Source: Escherichia phage vB_EcoP-101101UKE1. Taken from it: a stretch of 44,450 nt of DNA. Below, piece after piece: positions 988-42,326 of this stretch. Made by a program: the position numbers and the translations under genes. The notes beneath the pieces were generated by a model, which saw only the letters and a program-made list of their open reading frames with translations, did not search any database and had not been told where the DNA came from. The stretch lies in the sequence record MZ234012.1; one strand, given 5' to 3'. Within the stretch, counting starts at the first letter, position 1, and every line of letters starts with the position of its first letter.

Positions 988-3615
988 ATGCAAGACCTAC
1001 ACGCTATTCAACTTCAACTTGAAGAAGAAATGTTTAACGGTGGTATCCGTCGCTTTGAAGCGGACCAACAACGCCAGATTGCATCCGGTAATGAATCAGA
1101 CACGGCATGGAATCGCCGCTTATTGTCCGAGTTAATCGCGCCAATGGCTGAAGGTATTCAGGCTTATAAGGAAGAGTACGAAGGCAAGCGCGGTCGTGCA
1201 CCACGTGCATTGGCTTTCATTAACTGCGTAGAAAATGAAGTGGCAGCGTATATCACGATGAAGATCGTAATGGATATGCTTAACACTGATGTAACCTTGC
1301 AAGCTATCGCTATGAATGTAGCTGACCGCATCGAAGACCAAGTGCGCTTCAGTAAACTAGAAGGCCATGCAGCTAAATATTTTGAGAAGGTCAAGAAGTC
1401 ACTTAAGGCAAGTAAGACTAAATCATATCGCCATGCGCACAACGTAGCGGTCGTGGCTGAGAAGTCAGTAGCTGACCGTGACGCTGATTTCTCTCGCTGG
1501 GAAGCGTGGCCTAAAGATACCTTGCTACAAATTGGGATGACCTTGCTTGAAATCTTAGAGAATAGCGTATTCTTCAACGGGCAACCTGTCTTCCTCCGCA
1601 CCTTGCGCACTAATGGCGGCAAACATGGTGTTTACTACCTACAGACTAGTGAACACGTAGGTGAGTGGATAACTGCATTTAAAGAACATGTAGCGCAACT
1701 TAGTCCAGCCTATGCACCTTGCGTTATTCCTCCGCGTCCGTGGGTATCACCCTTTAACGGTGGGTTTCATACTGAGAAAGTAGCAAGCCGTATTCGTCTG
1801 GTAAAAGGCAATCGTGAGCACGTCCGCAAGCTGACCAAAAAGCAAATGCCAGCGGTTTACAAGGCTGTTAACGCTTTGCAGGCTACTAAGTGGCAGGTTA
1901 ATAAAGAGGTTTTACAGGTTGTGGAGGACGTTATACGTCTAGACCTCGGCTATGGTGTACCTTCCTTTAAACCACTCATCGACCGTGAGAACAAGCCAGC
2001 TAATCCGGTGCCGTTAGAGTTCCAGCACCTGCGAGGCCGTGAACTGAAAGAAATGCTTACGCCGGAACAATGGCAAGCCTTTATCAACTGGAAAGGTGAA
2101 TGTACTAAGCTGTACACCGCTGAAACTAAGCGCGGAAGCAAATCGGCGGCAACCGTTCGCATGGTTGGTCAGGCCCGTAAATATAGCCAGTTCGACGCAA
2201 TCTACTTCGTGTATGCACTGGACAGCCGCAGCCGTGTATACGCGCAATCTAGCACACTCTCACCGCAATCAAATGACTTGGGCAAGGCCTTGCTCCGTTT
2301 TACCGAAGGGCAGCGTCTTGATAGCGCTGAGGCGCTTAAGTGGTTTTTGGTGAACGGGGCGAATAACTGGGGTTGGGATAAGAAAACTTTTGACGTGCGC
2401 ACCGCTAACGTGCTGGATGGCGAATTTCAAGACATGTGCCGCGACATTGCAGCGGATCCGCTGACCTTCACTCAATGGGTAAATGCCGACTCCCCTTACG
2501 GCTTCCTTGCATGGTGCTTTGAATATGCGCGTTATCTGGATGCACTGGATGGAGGCACGCAAGACCAATTCATGACGCACCTCCCAGTCCATCAAGATGG
2601 TAGTTGTTCTGGTATCCAGCACTACAGTGCTATGCTACGCGATGCAGTAGGTGCGAAAGCAGTAAACCTTAAGCCCTCTGACTCTCCTCAAGATATTTAT
2701 GGTGCCGTTGCGCAGGTAGTAATTCAGAAGAATTATGCATACATGAATGCAGAGGATGCGGAAACCTTCACTTCTGGCAGCGTGACTTTAACAGGTGCGG
2801 AGCTGCGTAGTATGGCTAGTGCGTGGGATATGATAGGAATCACTCGCGGCCTGACCAAAAAGCCCGTAATGACACTACCTTATGGCAGCACACGTCTAAC
2901 CTGCCGTGAGTCAGTGATTGATTATATCGTTGATTTAGAAGAAAAAGAGGCCCAACGGGCTATTGCGGAAGGGCGTACCGCCAATCCTGTACACCCTTTT
3001 GATAATGACCGTAAGGACAGCCTGACACCTAGCGCAGCTTATAACTATATGACAGCTTTAATCTGGCCTTCTATTTCGGAAGTGGTTAAAGCTCCTATAG
3101 TGGCAATGAAAATGATTCGTCAGCTTGCACGTTTCGCAGCTAAAAGGAATGAAGGCTTAGAGTACACCTTGCCTACTGGCTTCATCTTGCAACAAAAGAT
3201 AATGGCGACAGATATGCTCCGCGTATCTACTTGCTTGATGGGAGAAATCAAGATGAGTCTACAGATTGAAACGGACGTAGTGGATGAAACGGCTATGATG
3301 GGCGCTGCTGCCCCTAACTTTGTGCACGGTCATGATGCCAGTCACCTTATCTTAACGGTCTGCGACCTTGTTGATAAAGGGATTACATCTATCGCAGTAA
3401 TTCATGATTCTTTTGGCACTCATGCAGGTCGCACCGCAGACCTACGTGATAGTCTAAGGGCAGAAATGGTGAAGATGTATCAAGGCCGTAACGCTCTGCA
3501 AAGCCTGTTAGATGAGCATGAAGAACGCTGGTTAGTAGACACCGGAATCCAAGTGCCAGAGCAAGGAGAGTTTGACCTTAACGAAATCTTAGTATCTGAC
3601 TATTGCTTCGCATAA
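988..3615 (+). CDS. single-subunit DNA-dependent RNA polymerase (T7/SP6 type), 875 aa
   Basis: RBS aggagt 7 nt upstream. Contains the motif B-like stretch [11 protein letters not shown] and motif C IHDSFGTH. Size matches SP6-type RNAPs (~875 aa). Confidence 0.95.
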
Positions 3616-3622
3616 TATTAAT

Positions 3623-3655
3623 AGGCCATTCCTTCGGGAGTGGCCTTTTCTTTTA
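3623..3655 (+). terminator. rho-independent terminator after the RNAP gene
   Basis: Hairpin aggccattcc-TTCG-ggagtggcct (10-bp stem with one G-U pair, UUCG tetraloop) followed by tttcttttt. Confidence 0.75.
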
Positions 3656-3688
3656 CCTACTACCGGTAACATTTCATTAACATAAAGT

Positions 3689-3704
3689 GTCTCACATGTG
3701 AGAC
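3689..3704. promoter_or_regulatory. conserved 16-bp palindrome GTCTCACATGTGAGAC (copy 1 of 6)
   Basis: Perfect inverted repeat immediately upstream of the phage promoter at 3707. Confidence 0.6.
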
Positions 3705-3706
3705 TT

Positions 3707-3729
3707 ATTTACCGGACACTATAGGATAG
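3707..3729 (+). promoter_or_regulatory. phage RNAP promoter (ATTTACCGGACACTATAGGATAG)
   Basis: Matches the recurrent element ATTTACYGGACACTATAGAAG found about 12 times in the window, which is close to the SP6 promoter ATTTAGGTGACACTATAGAAGAG. Confidence 0.75.
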
Positions 3730-3870
3730 CCGTCGGAGACGGGAAAGAAAGGGAAGATAAAGGATATAAAAGGAAGTAATAGGTATTAAAGGTTATATAG
3801 GTTATCTAGGAATACCTATTACCTTCTCCCTTCCTCTTATTACTACTTAGAGGAAGGGCAGATCTAGGTT

Positions 3871-3886
3871 GTCTCACATGTGAGAC
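3871..3886. promoter_or_regulatory. conserved 16-bp palindrome GTCTCACATGTGAGAC (copy 2 of 6)
   Basis: Perfect inverted repeat immediately upstream of the promoter at 3892. Confidence 0.6.
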
Positions 3887-3891
3887 TTCGT

Positions 3892-3914
3892 ATTTACCGG
3901 ACAGTATAGATAAG
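3892..3914 (+). promoter_or_regulatory. phage RNAP promoter variant (ATTTACCGGACAGTATAGATAAG)
   Basis: Consensus-like element with a C-to-G change in the CACTATA core (CAGTATA), upstream of the gp1.1-like gene. T7 likewise has promoters directly before gene 1.1. Confidence 0.55.
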
Positions 3915-3939
3915 ACTAACTTACTTTGGAGATTTAACC

Positions 3940-4068
3940 ATGCGTAACTTTGAGAAGATGACCCGTAAAGCTAACCGTTTTGACATGGAAGAAGGGCAGA
4001 AGAAAGGCAAGAAGCTGAATAAACCTGTCCGTGACCGTGCATCTAAACGCGCTGCGTGGGAGTTCTAA
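3940..4068 (+). CDS. T7 gp1.1-like small basic protein (42 aa, MRNFEKMTRKANRFDMEEGQKKGKKLNKPVRDRASKRAAWEF)
   Basis: Short ORF below the six-frame track cutoff. N-terminus MRNFEKMT and overall length and basic character match my recollection of T7 gene 1.1, and it sits directly after the RNAP gene as in T7. Confidence 0.6.
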   Translation: MRNFEKMTRKANRFDMEEGQKKGKKLNKPVRDRASKRAAWEF

Positions 4069-4071
4069 GTT

Positions 4072-6060
4072 ATGGCTATTATTCAGAATGTACCGTGTCC
4101 TGCCTGTCAAAAGAATGGACATGATATTACTGGCAACCATCTTATGATATTTGACGACGGAGCAGGATACTGTAACCGTGGTCACTTCCATGATAACGGT
4201 AAACCTTATTACCACAAGCCAGAGGGTGGCATCGAGATAACCGAATTGCCTATTACTGGCAATATCAAATATACACCTTCTCAATTCAAAGAAATGGAGA
4301 AGGAAGGGAAGATAAGCGACCCTAAGCTACGCGCCATCGCTCTTGGTGGTATGCGTATGAAAGACCGTTGGGAGGTCATGAATGAGCAAGAAAGGGCAGA
4401 CCAAGAAGCAGAGTGGAAACTTGATGTTGAATGGTTCCTCACGCTTAAGCGTAAGAACCTTGTTTCCCGACACATTCGCGGCGACATTTGCGCATTGTAT
4501 GATGTACGTGTTGGGCACGATGAAGAGGGTAGAGTCTCACGGCATTACTATCCGCGCTTCGAAAAAGGTGAGCTAGTAGGCGCTAAATGTCGCACATTAC
4601 CTAAAGATTTTAAGTTTGGTCATTTAGGTAAACTCTTTGGTATGCAAGATCTTTTCGGTATGAATACTTTGTCTCACGTGTTAGACAAGGGAAGACGAAA
4701 GGATTGCTTGCTTATTGTGGGTGGGGAACTGGATGCACTAGCAGCGCAGCAGATGCTCCTTGATTCTGCCAAGGGCACTAAGTGGGAAGGCCAGCCATAC
4801 CATGTATGGTCTGTCAACAAAGGCGAGTCTTGCCTTGAAGAGATAGTGCAGAACCGTGAGCATATCGCCCAATTCAAGAAGATTATATGGGGTTTTGATG
4901 GAGATGAGGTAGGGCAGAAGCAGAATCAGCAAGCGGCTCGCCTGTTTCCTGGCAAATCCTATATCCTTGAATACCCCTCTGGTTGCAAAGATGCTAACAA
5001 GGCATTGATGGCTGGCAAGGCTAAAGAATTTGTAGATGCATGGTTTAATGCCAAGTCATCTGATGAAGTCTTTGGTAGCCAGATTAAATCTATCGCATCT
5101 CAAAGGGATAAGCTCAAGGCTGCACGTCCAGAGCAAGGACTATCATGGCCTTGGCCTAAGCTGAACAAGGTAACGCTAGGTATTCGTAAGAATCAGCTTA
5201 TCATTGTAGGTGCAGGGTCTGGTGTAGGTAAGACTGAGTTCCTTCGTGAAGTAGTTAAGCACCTCATTGAAGAACACGGTGAATCTGTAGGCATCATTTC
5301 TACAGAAGACCCGATGGTCAAGGTGTCCCGTGCTTTTATCGGCAAGTGGATTGATAAGCGTATTGAGTTGCCGCCAACCAACGACCCGAAAGAAGATGGA
5401 TACCGTGAGGTGTTCGACTACACCGAGGAAGAAGCTAACGCCGCCATTGATTATGTAGCTGATACAGGTAAGCTGTTTGTAGCTGACCTAGAGGGTGACT
5501 ATTCGATGGAAAAGGTAGAGCAAACTTGCCTAGAGTTTGAGGCTATGGGTATTTCTAATATCATCATTGATAACTTAACGGGGATTAAATTAGATGAGCG
5601 TGCTTTTGGTGGGAAGGTTGGTGCACTTGATGAATGCGTCAAGCGGATTGGTACTATCAAAGACCGACACCCGGTTACTATATTCCTTGTATCACACCTT
5701 ACACGTCCTCCGGCAAACCGTACCCAACACGAAGAAGGTGGCGAAGTTATCCTTTCTGACTTCCGAGGCTCAGGCGCTATCGGATTCTGGGCATCTTACG
5801 CCTTGGGGATTGAGCGTAATACAAGAGCTGAAACGCTTGACGAAAGGACTACCACGTACATCTCATGTGTCAAAGACCGCGACCAAGGTATCTGGACTGG
5901 AACCAAGGTCATGCTTAAGGGTGACATTCAAACCGGACGTTTAATGGAACCACAAGCCCGTACTAAGTCATTTGACACCGGCGAAGCAAGGCAACAAGAA
6001 GTACCGGATTTACCGGACACTATAGAAGAGACTAACTTCGATGAAGAAAGTGAGTTCTGA
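4072..6060 (+). CDS. DNA primase/helicase (T7 gp4-like), 662 aa
   Basis: N-terminal zinc ribbon CPACQKNGHD...CNRGH, helicase Walker A GAGSGVGKT, and an acidic C-terminal tail ending DEESEF. Confidence 0.92.
   Translation: MAIIQNVPCPACQKNGHDITGNHLMIFDDGAGYCNRGHFHDNGKPYYHKPEGGIEITELPITGNIKYTPSQFKEMEKEGKISDPKLRAIALGGMRMKDRWEVMNEQERADQEAEWKLDVEWFLTLKRKNLVSRHIRGDICALYDVRVGHDEEGRVSRHYYPRFEKGELVGAKCRTLPKDFKFGHLGKLFGMQDLFGMNTLSHVLDKGRRKDCLLIVGGELDALAAQQMLLDSAKGTKWEGQPYHVWSVNKGESCLEEIVQNREHIAQFKKIIWGFDGDEVGQKQNQQAARLFPGKSYILEYPSGCKDANKALMAGKAKEFVDAWFNAKSSDEVFGSQIKSIASQRDKLKAARPEQGLSWPWPKLNKVTLGIRKNQLIIVGAGSGVGKTEFLREVVKHLIEEHGESVGIISTEDPMVKVSRAFIGKWIDKRIELPPTNDPKEDGYREVFDYTEEEANAAIDYVADTGKLFVADLEGDYSMEKVEQTCLEFEAMGISNIIIDNLTGIKLDERAFGGKVGALDECVKRIGTIKDRHPVTIFLVSHLTRPPANRTQHEEGGEVILSDFRGSGAIGFWASYALGIERNTRAETLDERTTTYISCVKDRDQGIWTGTKVMLKGDIQTGRLMEPQARTKSFDTGEARQQEVPDLPDTIEETNFDEESEF
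6008..6030 (+). promoter_or_regulatory. phage RNAP promoter (ATTTACCGGACACTATAGAAGAG)
   Basis: Exact consensus, embedded in the 3' end of the primase/helicase coding sequence. Confidence 0.75.
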
Positions 6061-6081: not shown

Positions 6082-6097
6082 GTCTCACACGTGAGAC
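6082..6097. promoter_or_regulatory. conserved palindrome GTCTCACACGTGAGAC with extended arms (copy 3 of 6)
   Basis: Lies inside a longer imperfect hairpin gggcttGTCTCACACGTGAGACaggctc followed by ttatt, just after the primase/helicase stop. Confidence 0.6.
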
Positions 6098-7049: not shown

Positions 7050-7225
7050 ACATAGTCTTAAAATGTTCGATGGTCATGAAGACCTGCAAGCCAAGATTAC
7101 TAACCAAGCCTTCCTGTTCGCACAGTTAACTATGGCTGAAGCAAAGAAGAATAGCCTGACGCGTGAACAGGTTATCAAGGAAAGTGAAGTGAAACGTAAG
7201 ATTCGCAGTCGATAAGTCAAGGGTT

Positions 7226-7241
7226 GTCTCACACGTGAGAC
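7226..7241. promoter_or_regulatory. conserved palindrome GTCTCACACGTGAGAC with extended arms (copy 4 of 6)
   Basis: aagggttGTCTCACACGTGAGACagccttt forms a roughly 12-bp imperfect stem followed by a T-rich stretch. Confidence 0.6.
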
Positions 7242-7272
7242 AGCCTTTCATCATATTGATTGGAGGTGCATT

Positions 7273-10332: not shown

Positions 10333-10391
10333 GTTATACTCAAGGTCACTTACGAGTGGCCTTTATGAATAACTTAACTGGAGGAAATATA

Positions 10392-10949
10392 ATGAATGAA
10401 CTGAACACTAAGATGCTCAAGAAAGTTTATAATCTTGTATATAGTATCACGGGCCTACACTTCTACCCTGTAGGCGGTGCGGTTCGTGACACCCTGTACG
10501 GATTAACACCTAAAGACTATGATATGGTGTTGCCTGTAGGGTCTATGGCAGATTCTCAGGCGCACGAAATCATGGAAAATATCTCTGAAGAGATGGCAAT
10601 TATGGGATTTAGTACCAAACTCTACCAATCATACGGTATCAATTTAGGTTATGAAATCAACCCTACCTCTTTTCAGGCTATGTTCCTTAGCTGCATGAAA
10701 GTGCAGATGCGTAATTGCCAACTTGATTTGCTTCTTTCTAAGGCTGAAACCATCCAAGATCATGTACGTAAGCACGATTGCAATATGAATATGGTGTGGT
10801 TCGATGGTAAAGATATCAAGTGGGAGCACGGCGGTGTTACTCCTTTCGTTCCTGTGTTAGAGTTCAACCCTGACGGATGTGATCGTCGCATTGCTTACAT
10901 GGACAAGAAGCGCCATGAACTTATCCGTCACAAATTAATGCATCTTTGA
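10392..10949 (+). CDS. minimal Pol-beta-superfamily nucleotidyltransferase with CCA-adding-enzyme/poly(A)-polymerase head motif
   Basis: Motif VGGAVRDTLYGLTPKDYDMV (GGxVRD followed by DxD) matches the class II CCA-adding enzyme head signature. RBS ggagga 7 nt before ATG 10392. Protein is only ~185 aa. Confidence 0.6.
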   Translation: MNELNTKMLKKVYNLVYSITGLHFYPVGGAVRDTLYGLTPKDYDMVLPVGSMADSQAHEIMENISEEMAIMGFSTKLYQSYGINLGYEINPTSFQAMFLSCMKVQMRNCQLDLLLSKAETIQDHVRKHDCNMNMVWFDGKDIKWEHGGVTPFVPVLEFNPDGCDRRIAYMDKKRHELIRHKLMHL

Positions 10950-10970
10950 TTTACCGGACACTATAGAAGG
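10949..10970 (+). promoter_or_regulatory. phage RNAP promoter (ATTTACCGGACACTATAGAAGG)
   Basis: Consensus match. Confidence 0.75.
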
Positions 10971-11035
10971 AAGTCCTAGGTAATCTAGGTTTATAAGGTA
11001 GTATAGGTAATTAAGTAAATATAGGAGATATAAAC

Positions 11036-11413
11036 ATGTCTATGGTAACTACTCTGGTATTTGTAGCTCAATACTTTCGTGGTCTGGCTAATAAGTTCAA
11101 GTCCAAGGCTATCAAAGCTATTGAGTCTCGCATCGAGGCAGTACAGGCAGAGCAAGTTAAAGTTGAAGAACATCGTAGTTCTCAAATGATTGACTGCCAT
11201 AACCGCTACTATGCATCTCGTGATGACCTTAATGCACGCCAAGTCAAAGAGGTTGAAGAGATGCTGGCACGTCACCAGCAAGAGCGCGACAGCCTGAAAG
11301 CTGAATTTGAAGAGAACAAGGCATCCATCGCCCTTGTACATCAAGCCGCATCTGACAACCTGAAGAAAGAGATTGTTATGCTGGAAATTGAGTTAGACAA
11401 CCTGACCAAATAA
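11036..11413 (+). CDS. hypothetical membrane-anchored coiled-coil protein (125 aa)
   Basis: RBS aggag. N-terminal hydrophobic segment MSMVTTLVFVAQYF followed by heptad-like charged sequence. Confidence 0.45.
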   Translation: MSMVTTLVFVAQYFRGLANKFKSKAIKAIESRIEAVQAEQVKVEEHRSSQMIDCHNRYYASRDDLNARQVKEVEEMLARHQQERDSLKAEFEENKASIALVHQAASDNLKKEIVMLEIELDNLTK

Positions 11414-12557: not shown

Positions 12558-12580
12558 ATTTACTGGACACTATAGAAGAG
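12558..12580 (+). promoter_or_regulatory. phage RNAP promoter (ATTTACTGGACACTATAGAAGAG)
   Basis: Exact consensus. Confidence 0.8.
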
Positions 12581-29075: not shown

Positions 29076-29092
29076 TATCTAACTCAAGGCTT

Positions 29093-29108
29093 GTCTCACA
29101 TGTGAGAC
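29093..29108. promoter_or_regulatory. conserved palindrome GTCTCACATGTGAGAC with extended arms (copy 6 of 6)
   Basis: aaggcttGTCTCACATGTGAGACaggtcttt, between internal virion protein genes B and C. Confidence 0.6.
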
Positions 29109-29139
29109 AGGTCTTTATGATAGGCACTATGGAGGAATT

Positions 29140-36116: not shown

Positions 36117-36136
36117 TTACTGGACACTATAGAAGG
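36115..36136 (+). promoter_or_regulatory. phage RNAP promoter (AATTACTGGACACTATAGAAGG)
   Basis: Consensus match, overlapping the terminase stop codon. Confidence 0.75.
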
Positions 36137-36272
36137 AAGGCCCAGATAATAAGAGAAAATAATAGGTAATATATAGGTTAACCTAGGTTATATAGGTATG
36201 CCTTAGTATGGGTGTACTCTGTACACCCTATTCCTTACTACCTTACTATATTTACATAATAGGAGAGAGACA

Positions 36273-39867: not shown

Positions 39868-41580
39868 ATGCTTCAAAGATTAAGTGCTTACTTGGTGAAG
39901 TACAAGAGTAAACTAACAGGTACTATTGAGCGCCTGCTATCTGATAAACTATCGGATACTATAGATGTTGCGGATTTTGGAGTTAATCCCTCTTCTAATG
40001 ACAACAGGCAAGCCCTTCAAGCTGCATTTAATGCGGTCAGATTGCTAGGCGGTGGTACTGTATCAGTCACTAAGGCTGGCGAATATAAACTAAGTGGTAC
40101 TGTTGAGATATTTGCTAATACACACTTCAAGGTTGCTAAAGGTGTAACATTTGTACGTGACTACGAAACAGGAGATACGCTATTCAGATTATCACAAGGG
40201 CAAGCTAGTAATGTAACAGTCAGTGGAGGTGTCTATGAAGGCAATGGTCACACTAAAGGAGATACACCTTTTGTAGTATTTGCATCTACTAGTAATAATG
40301 ATTTGAAGTTTGAAGGCATAATAGTTAACAATGTAGTGGACTACCACGCCATAGATTTAGCAGATTGGAACAACGTAGTTATTCGTGATTGTAAATTCCT
40401 AGGGTTTAAGAATACAGGCAGTCGTAACTTCTCAGAGGCTATACAGTTAGACCCAGGACTTATTACAGTAGGTCGCTATGTGCAGTCTAGTGGTTTACTG
40501 GTAGAGAATTGCTATGCTGGCCCAAACCTTGATTCTGGATTTGGCGGGTATGGTGCTCTAGTAGGAAATCATGCATCAGCTTATGGTGTTCAAGATAACA
40601 ACATTAGAATCCTAAATTGCACTACAGATGGTGCGCTCTTTGCAGGTGTACGTGTATTTAACTGGAAAAACTGGATAGTACGTGGTTGCACATTTAGAAA
40701 TTCTAATGCAAGAGGTGTTCATGTTACACCTGTCTCCTCTCAAACTAAACCGCAAGGAACTCGACAAGGTAGTGTTGTAGATTGTACTTTTGATGGCGTA
40801 AGAACACCAGTGCTAATTGCTGCACCATCTTGGCCTTTTACCGATATTAGTGACATTTGGCATGACCATATTGAAATTTCTAATAATACTATGATCCTCA
40901 CAGAGGATGTATCCTATGGTGTAGATGCAAGGTGGTGTAAGAATTTAATTGTAAAGGGTAATACAGGCTCTGGTGGCTTAGGGTTAATCGGTTTACGCTT
41001 TGGGACAAAATACCACATAGAAGGTAATACTTGGGAAAACGGAAGAGGTAGTGGGATTTGGTTAGGTGAGTCTGATGCTACTACATTCATTGGTACTGGA
41101 TTATCGGGCGAAGGTATACTTAGTCGTAATATCCTCTCTAAATTAGGGCAATATGGTATTCATGTAAACTGCAAGGTTGGCGGTCTAGTGATTAAGGCTA
41201 ATAATATGAAGGAAGTATCTACAGCTGAAGCAGGTAGGCACTTCATTAGCATAGACACAGGAGCTAACAACATCCTAGTAGAAGGTAATATTGGAGTAGA
41301 TGGAGAAAGCCCTAACAAGCCAAGCCTTGGTATTCGTGTTACTTCTTCTTGTTCCAATATTAAACTCATTGGCAATGATTGCTATGGTACACAGGCGCCT
41401 CAGAATAACCAAGGAGTCGGTTCTAGTACGGTGATTGTTTATGGACTAAATGGCGATCCTACAACTTTAGGCGTAGGTGCACCTGTAGGCTCTTTAGCAA
41501 CTGATATCAATGGGTCTGGTGGTAGTACATTGTACGTTAAAGAATCTGGTACATCTGCTCAAGGTTGGGTTGCAAAGTAG
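39868..41580 (+). CDS. tailspike 2: pectate-lyase-like right-handed beta-helix protein
   Basis: RBS aaaggagg. DVADFGVNPSSNDNRQALQAAFNA is typical of pectate-lyase-superfamily tailspikes, and Gly/Asn/Val-rich repeats follow. Confidence 0.75.
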   Translation: MLQRLSAYLVKYKSKLTGTIERLLSDKLSDTIDVADFGVNPSSNDNRQALQAAFNAVRLLGGGTVSVTKAGEYKLSGTVEIFANTHFKVAKGVTFVRDYETGDTLFRLSQGQASNVTVSGGVYEGNGHTKGDTPFVVFASTSNNDLKFEGIIVNNVVDYHAIDLADWNNVVIRDCKFLGFKNTGSRNFSEAIQLDPGLITVGRYVQSSGLLVENCYAGPNLDSGFGGYGALVGNHASAYGVQDNNIRILNCTTDGALFAGVRVFNWKNWIVRGCTFRNSNARGVHVTPVSSQTKPQGTRQGSVVDCTFDGVRTPVLIAAPSWPFTDISDIWHDHIEISNNTMILTEDVSYGVDARWCKNLIVKGNTGSGGLGLIGLRFGTKYHIEGNTWENGRGSGIWLGESDATTFIGTGLSGEGILSRNILSKLGQYGIHVNCKVGGLVIKANNMKEVSTAEAGRHFISIDTGANNILVEGNIGVDGESPNKPSLGIRVTSSCSNIKLIGNDCYGTQAPQNNQGVGSSTVIVYGLNGDPTTLGVGAPVGSLATDINGSGGSTLYVKESGTSAQGWVAK

Positions 41581-41739: not shown

Positions 41740-42045
41740 GCAGGTTAATATCTTAGTGTACACAAGGGCAGACCTAGGTTTGCTCTTAGTGTATTTACAA
41801 TGGAGGTCTTATGTATATACCTATGGAAGCAATAGTAGGTTGCCTGTGTTTGTTGGTAGGCTTCATTATAGGCTTAATAGCAAACCCTTAGTGTAATCCA
41901 AGGAGGTAACATGCAAGAAGAGAATTGGGATGTGTAATATTGGGTTTGGAGGAGGTTGAACCTTAGTCCTGTACAAGGATTAACCAAAGTCAAAATTTTG
42001 ATATATGCGTGTGTCAGTTCTCTCGCCCTCGCCCTCGCCGGGTTG

Positions 42046-42066
42046 CCCCCCCCCCCCCCCCCCCCC
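42046..42066. repeat. 21-nt poly(C) homopolymer
   Basis: Uninterrupted run of 21 C, preceded by (CGCCCT)x3 and followed by TATAGGG. Confidence 0.9.
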
Positions 42067-42326
42067 TATAGGGTGGCCTGAGGGAATCCGTCTTCGACGG
42101 GCAGGGCTGATGTACTCCTTGGATAGTACAAGGGAGGCGGAGGGAACGCCTAGGACGGCCTAGGGAATGGCTTAGTGGTGGACAAGGTGATTACCTTAGT
42201 GAAGCCTCTTAGTGCATTCCTGAGGCCATTCAGGGCGTTTATGAGGGATTGACAGGGTGAATGGGTGTGGGCTATCTGTTCGTTTCGTTCACTCCGCTTG
42301 CGCTCCGTTCACTCGCTCACGTGTAC

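Follow-up and report, generated by a model that had tools for sequence, protein, structure and literature searches.

Organization of the polymerase–gene 1.1 intergenic region

The window, by which we mean the whole 44,450-nucleotide stretch of Escherichia phage vB_EcoP-101101UKE1 analysed here (MZ234012.1), carries a spacer between the phage RNA polymerase gene and a 42-amino-acid open reading frame (ORF) that is followed by a primase-helicase gene. This ORF matches T7 gp1.1 (56% identity, E 1e-12; phrog_2490), opens with the same codons as T7 gene 1.1 and has a counterpart annotated 'similar to T7 gp1.1' in one relative. The initial annotation had placed the spacer in the equivalent of the gap between T7 genes 1 and 1.1, and this placement is borne out: the flanking genes are orthologous to those two genes, and the T7 gap also holds two promoters. 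Given these orthologous flanks, the spacer occupies the place of T7 phi1.1A–R1.1–phi1.1B, the primary origin. No ORF of at least 30 amino acids was found in 3616–3933 on either strand; one relative has short ORFs annotated on the reverse strand, which overlap the terminator and the gene 1.1 start. The segment is transcribed but non-coding: it forms the leader of the first promoter for the phage polymerase past the polymerase gene, and has the following parts.

3623–3655, + strand: terminator-like hairpin and T-run; 10-bp stem with 6 GC pairs, then TTTCTTTT
3656–3688, + strand: AT-rich spacer, CCTACTACCGGTAACATTTCATTAACATAAAG; strongly conserved
3689–3704, + strand: palindrome 1, 16 bp, GTCTCACATGTGAGAC; ends 2 nt upstream of P1
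3707–3724, + strand: promoter P1 (phage polymerase), ATTTACCGGACACTATAG; presumed start G3724
3730–3742, + strand: 5' stem-loop of the P1 transcript, CCGUC-GGA-GACGG
3741–3810, + strand: C-free tract with seven phased AGG units; the C-free run itself is 3741–3805
3772–3827, + strand: hairpin 2, predicted; 16–17-bp stem, one bulge, 23-nt apical region
3811–3849, + strand: G-free pyrimidine-rich tract; forms the 3' side of hairpin 2 and the 5' side of hairpin 3
3828–3858, + strand: hairpin 3, predicted; CCCUUCCUCU / AGAGGAAGGG, 10 bp, 11-nt loop; abuts hairpin 2
3871–3886, + strand: palindrome 2, same sequence as palindrome 1; 5 nt upstream of P2
3892–3909, + strand: promoter P2 (phage polymerase), ATTTACCGGACAGTATAG; presumed start G3909
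3940–4068, + strand: T7 gene 1.1 homologue, 42 amino acids; anchors the synteny with T7

Start positions of both promoters were assigned by analogy with SP6 and T7 promoters, and a start at G3909 gives the gp1.1-like gene a 31-nt leader. The terminator-like hairpin stands directly 3' of the polymerase stop codon and is kept in relatives; its counterpart carries a terminator annotation in Proteus phage PM93 and Vibrio phage AS51, and it is probably the end of the early, host-polymerase transcription unit. The AT-rich spacer behind it is almost identical in Vectrevirus, Zindervirus and Klebsiella phages, and a 20-mer from it pulled family members out of viral and metagenome collections. A sigma-70 promoter was looked for in this spacer (3656–3688), with no match.

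As first described, the structured region is bracketed by palindrome–promoter pairs (GTCTCACATGTGAGAC at 3689–3704 and 3871–3886; promoters at 3707–3724 and 3892–3909). The local duplication proposed to account for this arrangement does not hold up, because both elements are genome-wide motifs: the palindrome occurs 8 times in the window (0.28 expected) and the promoter 9 times, always on the + strand (0.02 expected). P1 agrees with the promoter consensus of the genome at 17 of 18 positions, and the differences between P1 and P2 recur in the same form in many lineages. Vectrevirus, Zindervirus, SP6-like Klebsiella phages and Acadevirus all keep the tandem promoters, with a second promoter in the place of P2, and a two-promoter layout was found also in more distant contigs and in phage AS51. 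Since this layout is conserved across genera and in the distant contigs, the tandem promoter–palindrome arrangement is an old architecture rather than a recent copy.

Predicted fold of the P1 leader

The perfect 12-bp inverted repeat reported earlier, GTAATAGGTATT/AATACCTATTAC, lies at 3776–3787 and 3811–3822. A perfect stem of this length was reached in 1 of 300 dinucleotide shuffles. In folding predictions the repeat grows to a 16–17-bp stem with one bulge (3772–3787/3811–3827), with pair probabilities mostly at least 0.9 in its 12-bp core. Hairpin 3 (CCCTTCCTCT/AGAGGAAGGG, 3828–3837/3849–3858) and the 5' stem-loop have pair probabilities of 0.86–1.0 and 0.98–1.0, respectively, and palindrome 2 folds as a 6-bp hairpin within the P1 transcript. 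The purine-rich and pyrimidine-rich tracts are present as described and are extremes of the 44-kb window, 3741–3805 (65 nt) being its longest C-free run and 3811–3849 (39 nt) its second-longest G-free run.

The initial annotation had joined these tracts into one purine/pyrimidine hairpin of about 120 nt and had proposed RNA folding as a check. Stable structure is indeed predicted, with a whole-region minimum free energy z-score of −2.1 to −2.7 on the + strand, and the 12-bp repeat does pair; the single long hairpin, however, is not recovered, and no pairing of the pyrimidine arm with the far purine arm (gggaaagaaagggaag...) is predicted. The purine tract 3743–3771 has a probability of being paired of 0.09 and is predicted to be single-stranded up to 3771, with 0.4 expected pairs between it and 3822–3841. 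The pyrimidine arm is predicted to pair instead with 3772–3776 and with downstream AGAGGAAGGG (duplex energy −18.3 versus −13.0 kcal/mol). Because the far purine arm is predicted to be unpaired with the pyrimidine arm, the modelled fold is not one ~120-nt hairpin; it is made up of a 5' stem-loop (3730–3742), a repeat tract left single-stranded and two hairpins side by side. Searching the whole window against Rfam 15 at gathering thresholds gave no match, and permissive E-values in 3500–4100 gave chance-level matches alone (E of at least 0.46). The hairpins and the 5' stem-loop are real, whether they form in the + strand transcript or in the displaced strand.

Conservation and covariation

Against K1-5 the intergenic region is 96.9% conserved and the flanking coding DNA 94.3%. 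The layout of the spacer is kept in the SP6-like genera examined, each lineage having a 10–14-bp stem of its own; in 7 of 9 SP6-group lineages, comprising 9 of 14 tested sequences, this is a perfect stem of 11–14 bp, a match for which turned up in no more than 1 of 300 shuffles. In 12 of 14 lineages folding is better on the + strand than on the − strand. RNAalifold across genera retained only the 5' stem-loop and the palindrome, both with compensatory changes; a single cross-genus structure fails because the register of the central stem shifts by one repeat unit between lineages.

Compensatory evolution is clearest in the 5' stem-loop, where a G-C pair has become A-U in 5 of 22 Vectrevirus sequences and C-G and U-A variants occur in other lineages, which points to selection on this element as RNA. 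The palindrome shows symmetric compensatory changes between lineages. For the central hairpins, covariation within the genus was not found among the 22 Vectrevirus sequences, whose variation is too low; a further scan of viral collections yielded almost no additional loci. Within hairpin 2, substitutions leave pairing intact in 5 cells and disrupt it in another 5, and the outermost pair of hairpin 3 is C-G in 2 of the 22 sequences (this window included) and U-G in the other 20. Between lineages L091 and L093 the stems differ by a compensatory A-U to U-A change.

RNase III signatures

T7 RNase III sites reportedly (Dunn and Studier 1983) lie just past promoters, including R1.1 between phi1.1A and phi1.1B, and a hairpin between these two promoters was found in the T7 sequence. 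We searched for the T7-type pattern, defined as a lower stem, an ACUC/UAUGA internal loop and an AAGG...CCUU upper stem, with the conserved sequence ACUCAAGG ... CCUUUAUGA flanking the upper stem. In T7 itself the search returned hairpins of this shape at five positions, which we take to be the known RNase III sites R0.3, R0.5, R1.1, R4.7 and R18.5, and one extra match (26589) without such a fold. Counterparts occur in the window at 7210, 10333 and 29077, and also in SP6 and PM93; within 3616–3939 the pattern had no match.

The earlier suggestion of an RNase III site at the spacer is not supported in its T7 sense, as the hairpin at 3772–3826 does not carry the T7-type signature. Hairpin 2 resembles the T7 sites in lying just downstream of a phage promoter at the R1.1 position, and CUAGGUU, the 5' flank of palindrome 2, looks like the AAGG that opens the T7-type upper stem. 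Whereas the T7-type shape comprises a lower stem, an asymmetric internal loop and an upper stem of ~10–13 bp, hairpin 2 is a single stem with a large apical region, without the lower stem, the ACUC/UAUGA internal loop or the AAGG...CCUU upper stem. A generic RNase III substrate is a mostly regular RNA duplex of about two helical turns, or some 20 bp, and bare 6-bp hairpins such as those of palindromes 1 and 2 are too short for the enzyme. Hairpin 2 has 16–17 bp, and the 10-bp hairpin 3, abutting it with no unpaired base between, could stack on it in the modelled fold.

AGG-repeat leaders at three promoters

The seven AGG units of the C-free tract begin at 3750, 3761, 3771, 3781, 3790, 3799 and 3808, that is, at spacings of 11, 10, 10, 9, 9 and 9 nt (TRF periods 10 and 9). 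Such repeat leaders occur at exactly three of the nine promoters of this genome, the other two being the following.

10966–11035, + strand: leader 2; promoter at 10949, C-poor leader, 4–5 phased TAGGT units
36132–36272, + strand: leader 3; promoter past the large terminase gene, four TAGGT units, central hairpin, G-free complementary tract

Leader 2 has no complementary arm, and its TAGGT units continue into the ribosome-binding site for the gene at 11036. SP6 carries the repeat at three positionally homologous promoters of the 10 compared, with the leader 2 homologue at 12559; in SP6 as well as in PM93 and Erwinia phage phiEa1H, a homologue of leader 3 lies 3' of the terminase gene. In both PM93 and phiEa1H the post-polymerase and post-terminase leaders carry the repeat. 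Spacings of 9–11 nt make up 69% of 61 leader spacings, compared with 6.7% genome-wide. The AGGT core is kept in Vectrevirus, Zindervirus, Acadevirus, Eracentumvirus and further lineages, constant while promoter specificity and spacer composition vary. Unit number differs by whole units among close relatives, and phiEa1H has a longer tandem expansion.

Duplex stability and the T7 calibration

T7 replication starts at phi1.1A/phi1.1B, with secondary origins at phiOR and phi6.5 (PMC8373140). We ranked 60-bp segments by duplex stability, using provisional nearest-neighbour parameters for duplexes and RNA:DNA hybrids. The four least stable segments of T7 are the leaders of phiOL, phi1.1B, phi6.5 and phiOR. 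In the window they lie at 10977, 6101, 3754 and 36146, and three of these four are AGG-repeat leaders: leader 2 holds the least stable segment of the genome, and 3754–3813 falls in the top 0.1–0.2%. The corresponding regions of SP6 rank 1, 3 and 5, the third lying ~100 nt downstream of its promoter, past the repeats. Low duplex stability was not found in the repeat leaders of PM93 and phiEa1H, despite their conserved AGGT motif; the conserved property is therefore the AGGT motif and not AT-richness. Long non-coding leaders are, moreover, generally AT-rich, which makes the T7 calibration suggestive but not specific.

For RNA:DNA hybrid over duplex stability, the initial 60 nt of the P1 transcript come fourth in the genome. 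Leaders 2 and 3 are unremarkable by this measure (z = −0.8 and −1.1), and we set R-loop thermodynamics aside as a class-wide property, since the P1 leader alone is extreme. GC skew was monotonic and uninformative about origin position.

A candidate origin and its alternatives

Three features seen at T7 origins coincide at the spacer: a consensus promoter, an easily melted AT-rich stretch downstream of it, and the location between genes 1 and 1.1. We also count in favour of an origin the parallel of the post-polymerase and post-terminase leaders with phi1.1 and phiOR, and the phased repeats, strand composition and intergenic conservation. By analogy with T7, the module from P1 to P2 may be the SP6-group counterpart of phi1.1A/phi1.1B and their AT-rich region. 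The reading we favour, tentatively and with less than even confidence, is that it is a putative T7-type transcription-primed origin with a structured leader. The phage polymerase would start at P1 and run through the purine-skewed DNA that melts most easily in this part of the genome; the C-free purine-rich RNA, or the opened duplex, would admit the phage DNA polymerase and primase-helicase, and synthesis would start as at T7 origins. The promoters of the other two repeat leaders would be secondary origins, and the central hairpins might determine what becomes of the RNA or help to hold the complex open. Against this reading stands a paper citing Dobbins et al. 2004, according to which an SP6 origin had been proposed at the DNA polymerase gene.

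The covarying 5' stem-loop and the lineage-specific hairpins are not predicted by the origin model and point to selection at the RNA level. They are the core of an alternative that we consider rather unlikely, in which the module acts in cis as a 5' leader, purely as RNA: its stem-loop and hairpins would shield the P1 transcript from 5'-end-dependent decay, one hairpin would be cut by RNase III as a generic double-stranded stem, and the defined ends would set the stability and translation of the message for the gp1.1-like protein and primase-helicase. Consistent with this are the compensatory changes in the 5' stem-loop and between L091 and L093, four hairpins with pair probabilities of about 0.9 or above, the long perfect stems that 7 of 9 SP6-group lineages have each for themselves, the better folding of the + strand in 12 of 14 lineages, and the hairpin visible in the T7 gap, given that T7 RNase III sites are likewise said to lie just downstream of promoters. 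Yet hairpin 2 does not carry the T7-type signature although three sites elsewhere in the window do, its substitutions in Vectrevirus are evenly divided (5 pairing-preserving, 5 breaking), and the cross-lineage consensus keeps only the 5' stem-loop and the palindrome. The early terminator past the polymerase gene, moreover, removes the need that R1.1 meets in T7, and P2 supplies the same genes with a short unstructured leader. A cis-acting leader also leaves the phased repeats unexplained, including those of leader 2, which has no complementary arm.

The repeats are instead the centre of a further proposal, to which we give a low probability: that the AGGT units are putative sequence-specific sites, in DNA or single-stranded RNA, to which a conserved protein of the phage or its host would bind and thereby control two or three promoters, the inverted unit behind the hairpin being one more site in the opposite orientation. 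The AGGT core persists across genera despite changed promoter specificity and spacer composition, its 9–11-nt phasing is near one helical turn, the units are confined to a few specific promoters, and their number varies by whole units. Replication slippage would yield whole-unit variation equally well, however, and no candidate protein was found; the units are shorter than classical iterons, the GGA of CsrA-type sites is not conserved outside Vectrevirus, and AGGU pairs weakly with the anti-Shine-Dalgarno sequence, while leaders 2 and 3 show no excess of Shine-Dalgarno-like sites. Slippage of a short unit near a promoter, with an occasional inverted copy, could have produced the tract as a by-product, only the promoters, palindromes and 5' stem-loop mattering. 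Whole-unit insertions and deletions among close relatives, the expansion in phiEa1H, the one-unit shift of stem register between lineages and the neutral-looking substitutions in hairpin 2 all fit such an account. We regard it as the least probable of these readings: the tract is kept at the same promoters in several genera, the intergenic region is conserved above neighbouring coding DNA, long perfect stems have arisen independently in 7 of 9 SP6-group lineages, and the C-free and G-free runs are genome extremes.

Several narrower functions of the repeats were considered and, for the most part, set aside. A CsrA sponge would present GGA, counted by eye at about seven in the Vectrevirus leader and one to four in SP6, L094 and others; most other lineages have GGU, and the conserved core is AGGU. 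For Shine-Dalgarno-like sites the P1 leader is in the top 1%, but an array of such sites is a weak explanation: the AGGU units fall short of −4 kcal/mol in pairing with the anti-Shine-Dalgarno sequence, and enrichment is lacking in leaders 2 and 3. Mimicry of the upstream half of the promoter is plausible in SP6 (TTAGGTTAC versus TTAGGTGAC); we rejected it because the motif is unchanged where promoter specificity differs (K1-5, L094, phiEa1H). The SP6 primase reportedly recognises 5'-GCA-3' (Tseng et al. 2000), and the sole + strand GCA, by reading, is at 3857–3859 and is not conserved in BP12B-like or Klebsiella phages. An iteron-type origin would have direct repeats of ~17–22 bp and a dedicated initiator protein, encoded nearby, that binds them; the units here are 9–11 nt, and no initiator-like gene was found among the annotated neighbours (polymerase, gp1.1 homologue and primase-helicase).

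Phages of the SP6/K1-5 group find wide use, both in therapy work directed at K1 E. coli and for their RNA polymerases, and we know of no mapped replication origin in the group. The present analysis yields three precise candidate sites (~3724–3860, 10966–11035 and 36132–36272) and a simple, T7-calibrated criterion for locating such sites in relatives. Three easily confused conserved non-coding elements are now separated: T7-type RNase III sites, dispersed 16-nt palindromic hairpins and AGG-repeat leaders. Should the origin reading be wrong, a deeply conserved structured leader at a few promoters still wants explanation. A T7 origin is not known to need more than a promoter and AT-rich DNA. The AGGT units might conceivably, though we hold it improbable, be a putative sequence-specific array, for example one on which the primase-helicase or some other conserved protein of the phage is loaded, that marks two or three 'replication promoters' of SP6-like phages; if so, origin recognition would be by sequence in a T7-supergroup phage, and the motif would have outlasted several changes of promoter specificity. 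Our literature search found no description of these elements, and an earlier mention in Scholl et al. 2004 or Dobbins et al. 2004 is possible.

Comparison with known systems

CsrB/RsmZ sponge RNAs resemble the P1 leader in being non-coding, with many regular short G-rich motifs, part single-stranded and part in hairpins; unlike them, the leader has no terminator to release a discrete RNA, and no Rfam match. Like the 5' stem-loop stabilisers of the T7 phi10 leader and ompA, it has a short stable hairpin less than 20 nt from the transcript start and shows compensatory evolution, but what comes next here is not a ribosome-binding site: ~190 nt of structured RNA without coding function follow, and then a second promoter.

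The closest likeness is to the T7 primary origin, whose activity has been shown, whereas the module described here is a candidate origin. Both lie in the same gap and have two tandem phage promoters with an easily melted stretch directly past a promoter, and the T7 AT-rich region consists of about seven TTAAG-like units 9–13 nt apart. The order of parts differs: promoter, RNase III hairpin, promoter and AT-rich tract in T7, compared with terminator, palindrome, promoter, 5' stem-loop, repeat tract, hairpins, palindrome and promoter here. The motif is AGG(T/A) rather than TTAAG, and the tract is only ~65% A+T. With respect to the other T7 origins, the third leader lies at another position than phi6.5, the order of DNA-metabolism genes is different, and the post-terminase promoter precedes lysis and tail-spike genes rather than the genome end as phiOR does. 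One repeat-leader promoter nevertheless stands, like phiOR, past the large terminase gene, and as with phiOR, phi6.5 and phiOL, a small subset of promoters have leaders in which the duplex is less stable than elsewhere in the genome.

Organization of the gap downstream of the polymerase gene

The window is the genome of a K1-5/K1E-like Vectrevirus (SP6 group, subfamily Molineuxvirinae). Over 901 bases around the target, Escherichia phage vB-Eco-KMB47 is 100% identical and ~70 other genomes are 93-99% identical. The phage RNA polymerase is encoded by ORF 988-3615, and the 42-codon ORF 3940-4068, which opens with the same codons as T7 gene 1.1, is a homologue of that gene (56% identity, E = 1e-12); the primase-helicase gene follows at 4072. 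Because the polymerase gene lies upstream and the gene 1.1 homologue downstream, the 324-nt gap holding the target is the positional counterpart of the T7 gene 1/1.1 gap, in which promoters phi1.1A and phi1.1B sit, as the initial annotation had correctly proposed. In T7 this gap also contains the primary origin of replication and R1.1, an RNase III site. The gap in the window is arranged as follows.

Features of the gap
3623-3655, terminator-like hairpin with T-run
3656-3688, AT-rich spacer, strongly conserved
3689-3704, 16-bp palindrome (GTCTCACATGTGAGAC)
3707-3724, + strand, promoter P1
3725-3870, transcribed spacer (the target)
3730-3742, 5' stem-loop
3828-3837/3849-3858, pairing arms of hairpin 3
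3871-3886, second copy of the 16-bp palindrome
3892-3909, + strand, promoter P2
3910-3939, 31-nt leader to the gene 1.1 homologue

The two palindrome-promoter pairs had suggested a local duplication, for which we find no evidence, since both elements are motifs dispersed genome-wide. The window holds eight copies of the palindrome (GTCTCACNNGTGAGAC; at 3689, 3871, 4671, 6082, 7226, 12527, 29093 and 42599) against 0.28 expected, and nine promoter copies, every one on the + strand, where 0.02 would be expected. Three of the eight palindromes precede phage promoters by 2-15 nt, and another three fold into intergenic hairpins of 13 bp. Phages of Erwinia, Vibrio and Pseudomonas share this palindrome; it differs symmetrically between lineages, GTCTCAC..GTGAGAC versus GTCCAAC..GTTGGAC, the latter being the variant of SP6, Klebsiella and Proteus phages.

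Other observations concern the surroundings. The spacer at 3656-3688 (CCTACTACCGGTAACATTTCATTAACATAAAG) is almost invariant in Vectrevirus, Zindervirus and Klebsiella phages, more conserved than the sequence around it, and no sigma-70 promoter match was found in it. In Escherichia phage ULINTec4 (MZ997839, locus 740-950) the polymerase terminator is followed by ~230 nt of almost pure T, overlapping an annotated hypothetical protein; this insertion most likely arose through a sequencing or assembly error at the T-run of the terminator. The promoter-proximal gap is a hotspot for insertions: several relatives (BP12B, pSL2, Pantoea phage Nifs112, PM93 and locus L110) carry HNH homing endonuclease genes or unrelated small ORFs just 3' of P2 or the gene 1.1 homologue. 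Elsewhere (42020-42140), a run of 20 C (42047-42066), whose length may vary or may reflect assembly, is followed by TATAGGG. The run probably falls within the terminal-repeat region, in which case the window would be a rotated genome; T7 has a comparable CCCCCATAGGGGG close to its left end.

Predicted fold of the P1 transcript

The initial annotation had described one long hairpin between a purine-rich and a pyrimidine-rich arm, including a perfect 12-bp inverted repeat. The repeat is there (3776-3787/3811-3822), and one dinucleotide shuffle in 300 gave a perfect stem of this length. Secondary-structure prediction did give defined structure, in the form of four hairpins: in the thermodynamic ensemble the P1 transcript forms the 5' stem-loop, hairpin 2 (3772-3827), hairpin 3 and palindrome 2. 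Hairpin 2 has core pair probabilities mostly at or above 0.9 and a stem that extends to 16-17 bp with a bulge. The picture of a single long hairpin is wrong on these predictions. Prediction leaves the purine tract 3743-3771 single-stranded (P(paired) = 0.09), pairing between the two arms contributes an expected 0.4 base pairs only, and the pyrimidine arm favours the downstream AGAGGAAGGG (-18.3 versus -13.0 kcal/mol). Minimum free energy z-scores for the whole region are modest (-2.1 to -2.7), a measure limited by the fact that shuffles of a sequence of complementary composition also fold well. The compositional bias itself is extreme, with the longest C-free run in the window at 3741-3805 (65 nt) and the second-longest G-free run at 3811-3849.

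Phased AGG units and their distribution

The C-free tract is built of seven AGG units, passed over in the initial annotation, which start at 3750, 3761, 3771, 3781, 3790, 3799 and 3808 (spacings 11, 10, 10, 9, 9 and 9 nt); Tandem Repeats Finder gives periods of 10 and 9. Across the compared leaders, 69% of 61 AGG spacings are 9-11 nt, versus 6.7% genome-wide. The full layout (terminator, palindrome, P1, 5' stem-loop, AGG(T) units, pyrimidine tract, palindrome, P2, gene 1.1 homologue) recurs in relatives at 70-84% polymerase identity: SP6 and other Zindervirus, Klebsiella phages of the Molineuxvirinae, Proteus phages (Acadevirus) and, from viral and metagenome collections, three additional lineages. 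L091, L093 and L094, the most distant among these, keep both promoters and lack the second palindrome. More distantly, Eracentumvirus phages of Erwinia and Pantoea keep the promoter, TAGGT units and terminal hairpin, and Vibrio phage AS51 (Colwellvirinae) has TAGAG-type units between two annotated promoters. Relative to K1-5, the intergenic region is more conserved (96.9% identity) than neighbouring coding DNA (94.3%). These sequence features are real, conserved and beyond chance.

Repeat leaders, defined by at least four (A/T)AGG(A/T) units within the first 100 nt after a promoter, follow three of the nine window promoters: P1, 10949 and 36115, the last just 3' of the large terminase gene. 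Leader 2 (10966-11035) and leader 3 (36132-36272) both carry phased TAGGT units and are conserved in SP6; leader 3 additionally contains a central hairpin (GGGTGTAC..GTACACCC) and, at 36222-36261, the genome's longest G-free run. In SP6 the three positionally homologous promoters have repeats and seven others compared do not, and in PM93 and phiEa1H repeats follow both the post-polymerase and the post-terminase promoters. The phiEa1H terminase-promoter leader (~40649-40800) contains at least three CCAGG-rich tandem units of 33 nt (AGGTTATCCAGGTCTATAGGTAGGCCC plus flanks), an expansion showing that slippage makes the repeat tracts grow.

Probable RNase III sites

The gap had been likened to T7 R1.1 as a processing site. 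A pattern derived from T7 RNase III sites matches R0.3, R0.5, R1.1, R4.7 and R18.5. In most of the T7 sites examined, an ACUC/UAUGA internal loop separates a lower stem from an upper one, which begins with AAGG and ends with CCUU.

Matches to the T7-derived pattern
T7: R0.3, R0.5, R1.1, R4.7, R18.5; also 26589, without such a fold
Window: 7210-7261, 10333-10376, 29077-29128
SP6: 12227, 30554
PM93: 32113; also 29590, without such a fold

Judged by shape and sequence, the signature hairpins of the window, SP6 and PM93 probably serve SP6-like phages as RNase III sites. The arms of the 10333 site are nearly identical to those of R1.1, and the 16-nt palindrome forms the upper stem of sites 7210 and 29077, whose U-G pairs are possible only on + strand RNA; most SP6 palindrome copies likewise have such a U-G pair. 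T7-type sites are thus recognizable in the window, at 7210, 10333 and 29077; the target hairpin lacks the signature and is not a T7-type RNase III site. Palindromes 1 and 2 differ from such sites in being bare 6-bp hairpins without a lower stem. The terminator directly after the polymerase gene also makes the T7 role of R1.1 redundant here. Hairpin 2 may be cut as generic double-stranded RNA; with 16-17 bp of its own, it could stack on hairpin 3 (10 bp).

Duplex stability and candidate functions

When 60-bp windows were ranked by nearest-neighbour duplex energies, the least stable in T7 were the leaders of the origin-linked promoters phiOL, phi1.1B, phi6.5 and phiOR. Three of the four least stable in our genome (10977, 6101, 3754 and 36146) are repeat leaders. 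Their SP6 counterparts take ranks 1, 3 and 5, the last-named region of the three leaders lying ~100 nt downstream of its promoter. The PM93 and phiEa1H repeat leaders are absent from the least stable 60-bp windows, so the conserved property is the AGGT motif, not AT-richness. The remaining stretch of low stability in our genome, 6101-6160, lies downstream of promoter 6008 and the palindromic hairpin at 6082, without AGG repeats; if the origin model holds, this would add a fourth candidate origin. When RNA:DNA hybrid stability is set against duplex stability, the initial 60 nt of the P1 transcript come fourth in the genome, and leaders 2 and 3 are unremarkable by this measure.

The best-supported account, which we hold tentatively, is that the target corresponds, in the SP6 group, to the primary origin module of T7: the promoter would fire into a repeat tract that is phased, purine-skewed and easily melted, giving a structured transcript. 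What the analysis shows is the sequence, its predicted structure, conservation and distribution, and every functional step is our inference. GC skew is monotonic. According to a paper citing Dobbins et al. 2004, an SP6 origin at the DNA polymerase gene had been proposed.

Its main rival, a leader acting purely at the RNA level, seems to us less likely. The 5' stem-loop shows a compensatory G-C to A-U change in 5 of 22 Vectrevirus sequences and C-G and U-A variants in other lineages, its G(G/A)A loop kept. A perfect central stem of 11-14 bp occurs in seven of nine SP6-group lineages (9 of 14 sequences tested; matched by at most 1 of 300 shuffles), with a compensatory A-U to U-A exchange between L091 and L093; a consensus fold misses it because its register moves by a repeat unit between lineages. 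Within Vectrevirus this stem is nearly invariant, the few substitutions keeping pairing in five cells and breaking it in five. In 12 of 14 lineages the fold of the + strand is better than that of the - strand, a bias that fits RNA and would also be compatible with a DNA hairpin. Rfam returned no family matches. A factor binding the AGGT array is less probable still. We rejected a CsrA-type sponge, as GGU replaces GGA outside Vectrevirus, and a promoter half-site mimic, since the same motif persists while promoter specificity changes. A Shine-Dalgarno-like array is a weak alternative.

In T7, replication initiates at phi1.1A/phi1.1B, with phiOR and phi6.5 as further possible start sites (PMC8373140). 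The AT-rich region of the T7 origin has about seven TTAAG-like units 9-13 nt apart. The post-polymerase and post-terminase positions of the repeats parallel those of phi1.1A/B and phiOR.
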